Shown piece after piece: positions 10,226 through 64,000 of a DNA stretch of 64,000 nt. Position 1 is the stretch's first letter. Every line of letters begins with the position of its first letter. This DNA is from a virus (taxonomy: Duplodnaviria > Heunggongvirae > Uroviricota > Caudoviricetes), in the IMG/VR virus record IMGVR_UViG_2878528002_000001, positions 34,473 through 98,472 of that record, one strand, 5' to 3'. The translations under genes and the position numbers were made by a program. Under the pieces are notes generated by a model. The model saw nothing but the letters and a program-made list of their open reading frames with translations. It did no database searches and had not been told where the DNA came from.

Positions 10226-11911
10226 TTATTTATTATCGCTAGGAGATGGAAGATTATTTGCTCCATTATTTCTACTAACGATTGTATTTTCATTTGTTGG
10301 ATTATCTATTTGTGGTCTGCCATCTCCATCGGAAGCAGCAGTACCACTACCAGAATCTTCCTGATTTTTACTCAAAGTATATGATGTTTCATGAGGTTTA
10401 TAGCGGTCGAAAATTCCGTCTTCAATTTCCTGATCCAGAACACTGAAATATGCATCGGGATCAATTCCTGCGGATGCAATAAGAAATGACAATGATCCGC
10501 CAGCCGACATATATAAATCTTTGCAGAAATTGAAAAATGTCTGTTTATTAACGAAAGAAGTAGGGAAGTAGTAGATTTCTACTTTGTTCTTTTCGTCTTT
10601 AATAATGTTCTTGTTGATTACATAATTTAATTCCTGTTGCCATTCGTATACCCATGTATACAACTGAGCATTTATCATTTCCAGGTTATTTTGACCCGCG
10701 GCAAAATTACCAGTAGTCATTGCACCAATAAGTGACGCACAGATTCCTAAATCTTGCGAGATATCATTATTCAGATTGGATTCATTTTTGGAATCAAAAA
10801 TATCGATATCTACATCAACAGAACTGAGCTTTGTTCCAGCCGCTACGGAAAAGAAGCTAATTCCACCACGAGTATTCTTATTCATTACCGCATTTTTTAC
10901 ATCATTGTGCTGCTTTTCCTGTTGTTTTGCAGTCAAAGCACAAGTACCTTTATCTTTACCTTCTGGAAACGTCTGATAAATAATTTTCGAATTGATATCA
11001 TCTAAAACTTTGCGTTTGGTATCAACGTAGTAATCTTTATATAAAACATCTTCAAGTGCAGCAATAATAAGACTTCTTCCCCATGGTTCAGAATCTTTAC
11101 ATTTGATTTTTCTACATAATGTTCTGGTATTATCCAAAATCATCCAGTCACCCGTAGTTTCACCATCATGTCGTTTATGGTATCCATCAGTAATTTCTGT
11201 CGGATATTTTCACAACTTCTGATCAAGTTTTTCACCAGTAAAATCATCGAAATATCTGAGATTAAATGCCAATACATATCTGCCATTTCTCTTCCCTACG
11301 ATTTTGGTGTATCGCCATGGAAGAGTAATAATACGTGCATTAATTCCGACTTCGTTAATTTCCACGATATTTTCAACATCATAGTCCGTCATGAACTTAT
11401 TGCGATCAAATGTACCTTGCCGGACATCAAAATAATAAAAAGCCGTACCTTCACGCATTTCCGTGTGAAGAGCATCCCTGATAAAAGCTTTATCATCTAT
11501 TGTCCTTAAGGCAGCTTTCATTAAATCCCTATTCTTTTTTTTCTTGGTTTTCGCTGTGTTATTTGGGAAAATAATAATTCTATCCAGACATGGAAGAGAA
11601 GTCATATAATCTATAGAATTTGATACAATACCATTTTTGGTATATACAAAATCAGAGAGCCGAATTGCTTCTTCATGATACATCACTGGATTTTTCAAGA
11701 TATTATCTATATCAGATTTTGTGAAATAGTTATATACTCCACAAGAAAACAGAAAATTTGAAGCATCGAATGCGAGATTAGCATAGTAGCTGTTCTGTTC
11801 ATTTGTCACATCTTTAACTGGTTGTGCAACAGTTTGCACGGTCTGAGTATTCACCTCAGATATTTTATTTTTCGGAGGGCGACCCCTCTTGCGTTTTACT
11901 TCCTCTGGCAT
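10226..11911 (-). pseudogene. Portal protein (561 codons) interrupted by in-frame TGA at 11210-11212
   Basis: ORFs 11210..11911 and 10226..11143 are in one frame: ...GEKLDQKL*KYPTEITDGY...; lies between terminase and protease. Confidence 0.75.
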
Positions 11912-62581: not shown

Positions 62582-62789
62582 TGAAACCGTAGTTTCATAG
62601 GGATTTTGATGCTACATATTGTGGTGTCATTAAATTGAATATACAATATATAGTGGTTGTGAATCTATATATTGTGGTTATGGAACAGCTAGGAACTTGT
62701 TTGGCGACAACCTAGCTGCTCCGATTGAAATATAGGATAAGCTATATTGATATTTAGTATATCAAATCTATTTGACTTATTCAAGTCAA

Positions 62790-63017
62790 GTTTATCTCAT
62801 GTATTATAGAATTCCAAAACTATGAGAGGAAGAGAACGGATTGTAGGCTTGTTTTAGAGATATGTAAATTCATAAGATTCCAAAACCAGAAATCCTTGAG
62901 AACGGGGACTCTGTAGTTTTAGAGGTATGTAAATTCATAAGATTCCAAAACTTTCCACCTGTGAAAGAAGAACACTCGATAGTTTTAGAGGTATGTAAAT
63001 TCATAAGATTCCAAAAC
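62790..63017 (+). CRISPR. Mini CRISPR array: 3 intact 36-bp repeats plus 1 degenerate repeat, 3 spacers (30, 29, 30 bp)
   Basis: GTTTTAGAG(G/A)TATGTAAATTCATAAGATTCCAAAAC at 62851-62886, 62916-62951 and 62982-63017; degenerate copy ending ATTCCAAAAC at 62820. Confidence 0.95.
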
Positions 63018-63029
63018 CTCAAATTACAT

Positions 63030-63240
63030 ATCTTATGAATTTATAGAATGTGAACTAAAAATAGACTAAGAGAAATCTACGTTATTACAAGATAATATAC
63101 CATTGTGTAGCTCTAGCAGTGTCAATATCATTCAAATTTAAACATGCGTTACATTCATATCATGCCTGGCGCAAGTGATTTGAATACTCCAAGACTTGTA
63201 ATAACATTGTCGAAGAGCATGACCGATTTTATATCGAGAA
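63030..63240 (+). ncRNA. tracrRNA-like anti-repeat fused to an IscB omegaRNA scaffold
   Basis: ATCTTATGAATTTA (63030-43) is the exact reverse complement of repeat nt 15-28; CTAAAA (63055-60) pairs repeat nt 2-7; then AGACTAAG..CTACGTT; helix 63081-90/63196-205; ACATTGTCGAAGAG motif; GCTCT/AGAGC pseudoknot-type pair. Confidence 0.88.
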
Positions 63241-63263: not shown

Positions 63264-64000
63264 ATGAAGTACTTAGATTTTGTATTAATGATTGATAAGA
63301 ATAATCACCCTTGTTGTCCTATTAACAATGGAAAAGCAAGATATTTGTTAAAAAATGATAAAGCAAAAATAATTAATCACGAACCAGTAGTTATTCAAAG
63401 AATTGATGATTATAAATCAGAAAATGAAATAAGAGATATTTTTGAGCTAAAAATTGATAGTGGATATCTGAATATTGGATTTTCTGTTAGCGATAATCAG
63501 CATGAATATTTAGCTGGGCAAGTCGAGCTTTTAACTAAAATGAAAGATCGACTCTATACACGAAGTACTTTAAGAAGAGGTAGAAGAAATAGATTAAGAT
63601 ATCGTAAAAATAAAAATATGGATTATAAAATAACAAATAATCCTACATATAAAAACGGAAATGAGGATGGTTGGTTTGCTCCATCTATTGAACATAAAAT
63701 GGAATCCCATATAAGATTAGCGAAAAAGATTATGTCTTGGATTCCGGTAGATAAGATCATATTAGAAGTTGCGAAATTTGACATTCAAAAATTAAAGGCT
63801 GATGCAGAAGGAAAAAATATATCCGGAAAAGATTATCAAAATGGTGAAATGAAAGGATATGAAAATGCTGCCACCTATGTAAGGGCAAGAGATGAATACA
63901 CATGTCAAATCTGTAAGGATAAAAAAGGTAAAAATGCGTTACCTGGAAAAATACAGGTTCATCATATTATTCCACGAGAGAATGGTGGGTCAGATATTCC
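63264..64000 (+). CDS. iscB: IscB RNA-guided endonuclease (truncated by window end)
   Basis: Hand translation: PLMP-like HPCCP..GKARYLLK; RuvC-I LKIDSG; bridge helix RRGRRNRLRYRK; GWFAPS; RuvC-II LEVAKFD; HNH RDEYTCQIC..HHIIPRENGGSD. AAGGA RBS. Confidence 0.93.
   Translation, partial: MKYLDFVLMIDKNNHPCCPINNGKARYLLKNDKAKIINHEPVVIQRIDDYKSENEIRDIFELKIDSGYLNIGFSVSDNQHEYLAGQVELLTKMKDRLYTRSTLRRGRRNRLRYRKNKNMDYKITNNPTYKNGNEDGWFAPSIEHKMESHIRLAKKIMSWIPVDKIILEVAKFDIQKLKADAEGKNISGKDYQNGEMKGYENAATYVRARDEYTCQICKDKKGKNALPGKIQVHHIIPRENGGSDI

Follow-up and report, generated by a model that had tools for sequence, protein, structure and literature searches.

A probable IscB guide array with type II-A-like repeats in a gut prophage, with signs of growth at its scaffold end

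The short repeat array described here very probably provides the guides of a CRISPR-associated IscB that the phage encodes. The stretch of phage DNA analysed (64,000 nucleotides, called the window) is part of the complete provirus record G000, which has a size of 174.7 kb. In the proposed architecture, the array, an anti-repeat with an omega-RNA scaffold and the iscB gene would all be read on the + strand. In the whole explanation, the array guides IscB, the guides are directed against sibling phages, and a host type II-A machine adds new units at the scaffold end. We regard this combined explanation as a serious candidate that falls slightly short of an even call, and its parts differ in strength.

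The sequence-only reading made before this study had described four repeat units and three spacers, with a repeat that starts with GTTTTAGAG and ends with CCAAAAC and with degeneracy that falls from 5′ to 3′. Re-reading of the sequence bore out this layout (Table 1). R0 is degenerate, R1 differs at one base, and R2 equals R3. The array obtained a score of 222 with a period of 66 in Tandem Repeats Finder. It has the features of a generic CRISPR array, namely at least three near-identical direct repeats of 23–50 nt and unique spacers of similar length, with a period of 65–66. R0 kept 25 of the 36 consensus positions in a gapped alignment and showed 11 differences from the last repeat. Its 31-nt degenerate form is kept in all members of the window's clade, so R0 is old and no chance look-alike. 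We read R0 as the oldest (trailer) end of the array. When up to 12 mismatches were allowed, no repeat copies beyond the array were found in the 174,673-bp record. Short words common to S1 and S2 and to S2 and S3 (GAGAACGG; ACTC..TA) were rejected, as their local alignment scores lay within the shuffled range. The weak sigma-70-like site in Table 1 was the sole promoter candidate on the + strand between the upstream gene and R0, and it is a lead only, since the count of promoter-like sites in the region was not above the shuffled expectation. A promoter within the repeats was dropped, because it was not conserved between clades and the promoter scan stayed at background level.

Table 1. Features of the array, scaffold and iscB region (positions in the window).
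Feature	Position	Strand	Description
Sigma-70-like promoter candidate, weak	62725..62754	+	TTGAAA-18-GATATT, 9/12 positions
R0	62790-62820	+	31 nt, degenerate terminal repeat copy; 5′ GTTT and 3′ ATTCCAAAAC retained, ~5 nt lost
S1	62821-62850	+	spacer 1, 30 nt
R1	62851-62886	+	36-nt repeat, single variant base (G to A, repeat position 10)
S2	62887-62915	+	spacer 2, 29 nt
R2	62916-62951	+	consensus 36-nt repeat
S3	62952-62981	+	spacer 3, 30 nt, adjoins scaffold-side repeat R3
R3	62982-63017	+	scaffold-proximal consensus repeat, identical to R2; positions 13-28 pair with anti-repeat
CTCAAAT	63018..63024	-	abuts last repeat; - strand junction ATTTGAG/GTTTT
Anti-repeat	63030..63061	+	16-bp stem with repeat positions 13-28, internal loop, CUAAAA:UUUUAG (repeat 5′) helix (fold)
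Omega-RNA (HEARO)-like scaffold	63040..63223	+	RF02033, 52.6 bits, E 8.5e-10
iscB	63264..64000, runs off window	+	full gene L001:2165-3736, 523 aa

The anti-repeat begins 12 nt after R3. The match of the scaffold to RF02033 spans the full model (positions 1–211) but lies below the gathering score of 83, and the scaffolds of the relatives scored 45–58 bits against the same model. The first stem of the HEARO model is missing in the scaffold, and the repeat:anti-repeat duplex stands in its place. The 523-aa protein carries the Pfam domains RRXRR (1.2e-37, over the full profile) and HNH (3.8e-08). Its gene is present in a single copy, and no second IscB was found in the prophage. The locus therefore shows what characterizes CRISPR-associated IscB: an RRXRR/HNH protein and, upstream on the same strand, a HEARO scaffold whose 5′ part is replaced by an anti-repeat. 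The stem formed by repeat and anti-repeat covaries, with compensatory changes across five clades, and a stem maintained in this way indicates that the repeats are functional RNA parts. The anti-repeat, the full-length HEARO match and the RRXRR and HNH protein downstream are the grounds on which we assign the repeats to IscB. In cis, the last spacer and repeat would fold back on the anti-repeat in the manner of a natural single guide, and the upstream spacer–repeat units would pair with the scaffold in trans. In such a natural single-guide RNA, the guide would be spacer 3. We infer transcription and processing of the array and cleavage by IscB.

Protein-guided searches of IMG/VR, metagenomes and assemblies gave 39 parsable loci, whose IscB proteins had 55% to 100% identity to that of the window. 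A common layout of mini-array (1–5 repeats), anti-repeat, scaffold and iscB was found in all 39. Among them, 25 arrays were distinct, as were 47 spacers; 33 of these spacers were exactly 30 nt long (range 28–31). A more distant relative, L262 (50% identity), has eight repeats. The profile-based scan of IMG/VR added a single locus, and the exact repeat of the window was not found in other IMG/VR contigs. The window's array was identical in three independent assemblies, one isolate assembly and two metagenomes, and the scaffold and iscB DNA of these assemblies was 99.8–99.9% identical. The prophage is carried by the assembly GCA_003474255.1, on the 850-kb contig QROE01000001.1. Lineages at 93% identity or below had no spacer in common with the window's array. 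The sequence-only reading had named identical spacers in all relatives with no protospacers as the sign of a frozen relic. For the family this was refuted, as 47 distinct spacers exist and some of them match sibling phages; for the window's own lineage, the array stayed identical in the three assemblies. Judged from these comparisons, spacer turnover is real across the family and slow or absent in the window's lineage. The only near-isogenic pair, L247 and L248, is identical over 2245 nt downstream and has 1 difference in 700 nt upstream; at the scaffold end, one of the two arrays has a 66-bp unit more than the other. This pair was dropped as proof of a fresh spacer gain, because the two repeats of L248 differ at 2 positions, which makes loss likelier.

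The arrays of the family have a consistent polarity. The 5′-most copy was uniquely the most divergent from the scaffold-proximal repeat in 24/24 distinct arrays with at least two repeats. From the 5′ end to the scaffold, the differences per copy were 11, 1, 0 and 0 in the window and 3, 2, 1, 1 and 0 in L008. Six pairs of arrays had a significantly similar spacer (scores of 23–29 against a shuffled maximum of 11), and five of these pairs were informative. The common spacer was the 5′-most in both partners of L017/L043, L018/L019 and L247/L248, and their scaffold-side spacers all differed. In L008/L039 and L011/L015, one partner was without its 5′ units, indicating loss. None of the five informative pairs had both partners differing on the 5′ side. 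The eight-repeat array of L262 has ATAAGG in copies 1–5, ATAGGG in copy 6 and ATAGAG in copies 7–8, and a nested series of this kind would arise if each insertion copied the terminal repeat. The earlier suggestion that the newest units adjoin the scaffold was thus supported by the divergence of the first copy, the 5′-anchored common spacers and the ordered repeat variants of L262. We consider growth of the array at the scaffold end likely. A weaker reading is that the first repeat decays as no guide needs it, which leaves the pattern of spacer sharing and the nested variants unexplained. By the family polarity, spacer 3 would be the youngest. Ordinary CRISPR arrays show the opposite relation of age to the direction of transcription.

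The likeness of the repeat to those of type II-A, which had been noticed from the sequence, was confirmed in a search of host arrays. A scan of 185,579 species genomes with a degenerate pattern of the family repeat returned a few bacterial arrays. One of them, from an uncultured Clostridia genome, directly follows Cas9 (with a PI domain), Cas1, Cas2 and Csn2, and its leader ends with ATTTGAG. This array is a genuine group-1 type II-A locus by the definition of PMC5382924. The repeat of the window is identical at 28/36 positions to the repeat of this locus and at 27–29/36 positions to those of other II-A-type arrays; these identities are partly circular, since the host repeats were retrieved with a pattern built from phage repeats that forced 19 of the 36 identities, and the remainder is still above chance. 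Across the phage repeats, identity to the four II-A-type repeats was 26–30/36 in the + (transcribed) orientation and 18–24 when reverse-complemented. The repeat also has the II-A form (36 nt with a 5′ GTTT and a 3′ AAAC, next to spacers of ~30 nt; PMC5382924), and the unit of 36 + 30 nt is II-A geometry. An IscB guide needs only about 16 nt (PMC12660989). No cas9-cas1-cas2-csn2 genes adjoin the array, whose effector is the 523-aa IscB, and a leader ending with ATTTGAG or CTRCGAG directly 5′ of the first repeat is missing in the window and in all relatives. With the cas genes absent and the leader misplaced, the locus is no member of type II-A.

A leader-like element was found at the other end of the array. 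The CTCAAAT that abuts the last repeat, when reverse-complemented, gives the leader-anchoring motif of group-1 type II-A, and ATTTGAG/GTTT is the leader–repeat junction of group-1 type II-A arrays (PMC5382924). The leader end is essential for spacer integration in type II-A (PMC5382924; PMC4330368). CTCAAA was retained in 23/25 distinct arrays while the surrounding loop varied; the exceptions were one sub-lineage with GCCAAAG and another with CTCAATG. CTCAA was retained in the relative at 50% identity. No family array had the leader-anchor motif at its 5′ end, and the bacterial II-A arrays whose repeats are similar have it at the opposite end. For each end and orientation, the probability of meeting an exact 7-mer at a given position by chance is ~6e-5, a figure that overstates the case because the motif was sought after the fact and the real odds are weaker.

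We propose CTCAAAT as a putative docking site for a host integrase. The ends of II-A repeats are near-palindromic (GTTTT...AAAAC), so an integrase that reads the leader end and GTTT could dock at CTCAAAT. In this model, the phage has no Cas1-type integrase of its own, and a host type II-A Cas1-Cas2-Csn2(-Cas9) complex would insert the spacers by docking on the inverted CTCAAAT. New units would enter at the scaffold-proximal repeat, and the transcription-proximal 5′ end would be the old, decaying trailer. Docking at CTCAAAT would account for the polarity, for units of this size and for the lack of adaptation genes. A supply of spacers by host Cas1-Cas2-Csn2 is plausible, with the inverted ATTTGAG motif and the 36 + 30-nt unit as support. 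That a host II-A integrase acts through the inverted motif can be put forward only tentatively. CTCAAA lies in a loop of the guide RNA, and its conservation could therefore serve RNA or IscB binding, not DNA docking. The fuller version, in which the leader anchor was turned round between the last repeat and the scaffold and host Cas1-Cas2-Csn2 loads the newest guide as a cis-fused single guide, is more doubtful still.

The absence of adaptation genes noted earlier for the window held in the whole prophage. No profile match to Cas1, Cas2 or Csn2 was found in the complete 174.7-kb prophage, and no match to Cas1 was found in 18 related phage records, 7 of which are at least 90% complete. A phage cas1 or cas2 just beyond the window, which would have spoken against the earlier reading, was thus looked for in the full prophage and not found.

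Among the alternatives, the one that survives best is a functional IscB guide array without dedicated acquisition, in which units come and go only through homologous recombination among the repeats of co-infecting sibling phages or of host arrays and the 5′ decay results from relaxed selection. We consider this possible, though rather unlikely. The first repeat follows no spacer in a spacer-then-repeat crRNA and is therefore unneeded in this architecture, leaderless phage mini-arrays have been proposed to gain spacers by recombination (discussion of PMC6858448), the difference between L247 and L248 resembles recombinational loss, and the window's array was stable over three samples. However, recombination leaves unexplained the consistent 5′ anchoring of common spacers, the strict 30-nt spacer length, and the presence of 47 distinct spacers among arrays of at most 8 repeats. 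Nor does it account for the ordered, nested variants of L262, which agree with a terminal repeat that is copied time after time. The sequence-only reading had offered recombination with a host array as one source of spacers; this is without support, since none of the phage spacers turned up in host arrays. The spacers of host arrays (Clostridia MAG, L. apodemi and others) likewise had no match to the phage family.

The targets of the spacers were sought with mismatches allowed, for all spacers, in 18 related phage records (2.46 Mb) and the prophage (2.6 Mb in total). Spacer 3 of L039, which is scaffold-proximal, matched two sibling phages with 1 and 2 mismatches, within a 1955-aa ORF. Spacer 1 of L012 (3 mismatches) and spacer 1 of L010 (5 mismatches) matched a third sibling in a Sir2-like gene, approximately 1 kb from its IscB locus. 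The chance expectation was ~2e-4 matches per spacer at 5 or fewer mismatches. One further spacer had a weaker match (6–7 mismatches) to a conserved gene of other siblings, and two adjacent spacers of L262 are variants of one site. The flanks of the 3–4 protospacers showed no consensus TAM/PAM on either side; with so few sites, the missing motif speaks neither for nor against capture by a PAM-reading II-A machine. The guides would aim IscB at the DNA of competing sibling phages and so exclude them from an occupied cell.

The spacers of the window itself are orphans. As stated earlier from the sequence, no match lies inside the window. Exact protospacers of S1–S3 were not found in GenBank phages (blastn on the array), nor were protospacers in the 18 related phage records (BLAST and mismatch-tolerant scan) or in 64 genomes of one Clostridia family. 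Their exact 3′ 20-mers were not found in IMG/VR, and plasmids gave only chance matches across repeat/spacer borders. Outside the window, S1 has a homologue in the phage's own genome (G000:146805-146834) with 21/30 positions identical without gaps and 16/17 at the 3′ end, against a chance expectation of about 0.004 such matches. It sits in a spacer region of the phage's tRNA cluster. This S1-like site is kept in 8 other contigs with the non-matching C, which indicates that S1 is an old, drifted spacer or is aimed at an unsampled variant.

These orphan spacers, the resemblance of S1 to a diverged copy of the phage's own DNA and the identical array of the closest relatives are what could be expected of a decaying relic, which would stem from a single capture of a host type II-A array, would now be unused and would keep its II-A likeness and motif as leftovers. 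This explanation is improbable, since the two scaffold-proximal repeats are intact and identical, compensatory changes have kept the anti-repeat complementarity between clades at 50–93% identity, the spacers differ in each sub-lineage at 93% identity or below, and some match current sibling phages with 1–3 mismatches. The motif also lies at the other end and in the other orientation than in host arrays and is thus no simple leftover.

An RNA decoy against host Cas9 immunity, of the Racr or viral single-guide type, would soak up Cas9 and tracrRNA or re-aim Cas9. Phage sgRNA mimics that sequester Cas9 are known (preprints 10.64898/2026.06.01.729453 and 10.64898/2026.06.03.729762), the first 15 nt of the repeat are nearly as in genuine II-A repeats, and the last unit with the anti-repeat resembles a single guide. 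Nevertheless, the scaffold scores as a HEARO/omega RNA, the anti-repeat covaries with the phage's own repeat and not with a host repeat, and the spacers are of full length (30 nt), diverse and matched to sibling phages, not to a cas9 promoter. Racr and viral sgRNAs are mimics that bind a Cas protein of the host, mostly lie in islands of anti-CRISPR genes and have no cognate effector, whereas here an intact iscB is joined to the locus in every relative. We therefore judge a decoy as the main function very unlikely. The repeats may have a secondary decoy role. Cross-talk of the array with a host Cas9, also named in the sequence-only reading, is plausible.

CRISPR-associated IscB (OMEGA) systems were reportedly first described by Altae-Tran et al. 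in 2021. They are a proposed stepping stone from transposon nucleases to Cas9. One such system known from metagenomes, DelIscB, has been characterised (PMC12660989). Like the phage locus, it has an upstream ncRNA that carries spacers and repeats together with an anti-repeat fused to the omega-RNA scaffold, is without adaptation genes, and is seen as an IscB–Cas9 intermediate. What distinguishes the phage family is its setting in large gut prophages, the closely II-A-like repeat, the spacers that match sibling phages, an age polarity that is consistently reversed and a II-A leader-anchor motif in inverted position. In the literature searched, no report was found of the first three for CRISPR-associated IscB, nor of a family-wide reversed polarity with an inverted leader-anchor motif.

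Group-1 II-A arrays of the Streptococcus thermophilus CRISPR1 type (PMC5382924; PMC4330368) share with the phage arrays the 36-nt GTTT...AAAC repeat, the 30-nt spacers, the 26–30/36 repeat identity and a 7-nt leader-anchor motif that abuts the repeat. The phage differs in having no cas9, cas1, cas2 or csn2, in carrying its anti-repeat in an omega-RNA scaffold instead of a tracrRNA, and in the position of the motif, which is transcription-distal and on the opposite strand relative to the internal sequence of the repeat. The mini-arrays of the Sulfolobales viruses SPV1 and SPV2 (PMC6858448) also consist of one to a few spacers with host-like repeats and without adaptation genes. Their spacers match close relatives, often in genes adjoining the array, and host adaptation is assumed for them (PMC6858448). 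They depend wholly on effectors of the host, and their leader is a normal one upstream, whereas the phage supplies effector and scaffold itself and carries its leader-like motif in inverted form at the far end. The interviral-conflict pattern of these viruses (PMC6858448) is seen in the spacers of L039, L012 and L010, which match siblings; the window has only the diverged own-genome match of S1. The Cas9 sgRNA mimics vsgRNA and rAcrIIA1 (10.64898/2026.06.01.729453, 10.64898/2026.06.03.729762) likewise join a guide, a II-A-like repeat and an anti-repeat in one transcript. Their guides are short, they lack an array and a nuclease gene, and they inhibit host Cas9, whereas the phage locus combines full-length, varied spacers with a dedicated IscB.

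The nearest IscB proteins of GenBank phages were those of Clostridium phage c-st and Clostridioides phage pCD1602_4, with 38% identity. These large clostridial phages also have an upstream HEARO RNA, which differs in that it scores fully (124–140 bits) and comes without repeats. This makes the array an innovation of the gut-phage clade.

Sibling prophages of a common human gut bacterium appear to use the system as a weapon against each other, and the 523-aa IscB is a compact predicted nuclease with a natural single guide. With its II-A-type unit, polarity and inverted 7-nt motif, the family gives a testable model of how IscB systems without an integrase of their own are supplied with spacers. 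If host II-A enzymes load the array, adaptation and interference modules of different owners would cooperate, the single-guide position of the newest guide would be explained, and the phage would hijack host adaptation for its own effector. The locus would then be a living intermediate, or natural model, between the IscB omega RNA and the crRNA:tracrRNA pair.

In the 399 genomes scored from a sample of 401 Clostridia genomes, no prophage copy of the window's IscB was found, and the homologues present had no more than 41% identity. Three matches came from a protein search for Csn2. The 877-aa ORF at the left end of the prophage reached at most 81% nucleotide identity in the sampled Clostridia genomes.

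The flank upstream of the degenerate first repeat (R0) of the array contains a pair of direct repeats about 110 nt 5′ of R0. Each copy is 29 nt long and has ATATTGTGGT as its end, and the two copies are 79% alike. A perfect inverted repeat occupies the matching place in clade A, one group of relatives with IscB arrays. The array may have its operator or promoter here.

The clade-A locus L003 carries one repeat and no spacers, and its unique upstream flank abuts the repeat directly. Ordinary IscB elements, which use flanking DNA as the guide, have this layout. Just 3′ of iscB in the same phage, a skipping-rope RNA (RF02924) was matched over its full length at 71 bits, above the threshold.

A relative with 50% IscB identity, L262, has an array of eight repeats. 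Its neighbouring spacers 3′ of the repeats at 844 and 910 are close variants of each other, as if two target variants had been sampled at one same site. Several spacers of this array end in ATG plus two bases. Nearly all of the Logan contigs with iscB (short-read unitigs L231, L236, L237 and L241–L246) begin within the last repeat, as expected because the repeat is 36 nt long and the unitigs are built from 31-mers; array content is therefore unreadable from them.

In phage G011, sibling spacers match a 68-aa ORF and the gene of a Sir2-like protein (phrog_2162, 7.6e-46). Both are situated in a variable region adjoining the IscB locus, and this region is missing from the spacer-carrying phages. 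A look-alike of spacer 1, with 16/17 positions matching at the 3′ end, was found in the complete provirus G000, outside the window. It is non-coding and flanked by phage tRNA-Leu and a third tRNA, in a conserved inter-tRNA region of 315 nt. The same sequence occurs in eight further contigs with differing gene neighbourhoods.

In the two relatives at 76% identity to the window's system, the IscB array is preceded at a distance of about 1 kb by a TnpB-type gene (Pfam Cas12f1-like_TNB and HTH_OrfB_IS605), so two different transposon-derived RNA-guided nucleases adjoin there.

Coordinates of the features in the window and in related loci
Feature	Record	Positions
Direct repeat pair	Window	62597-62678
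Inverted repeat	L003	2603-2649
Single repeat	L003	2723-2758
Skipping-rope RNA	L003	4760-4840
Eight-repeat array	L262	713-1213
Spacer-matched genes	L132 (G011)	10307-11258
Spacer 1 look-alike	G000	146805-146834
Same look-alike	L002	3806-3835
TnpB-type gene	L232	1-503
TnpB-type gene	L233	1-503
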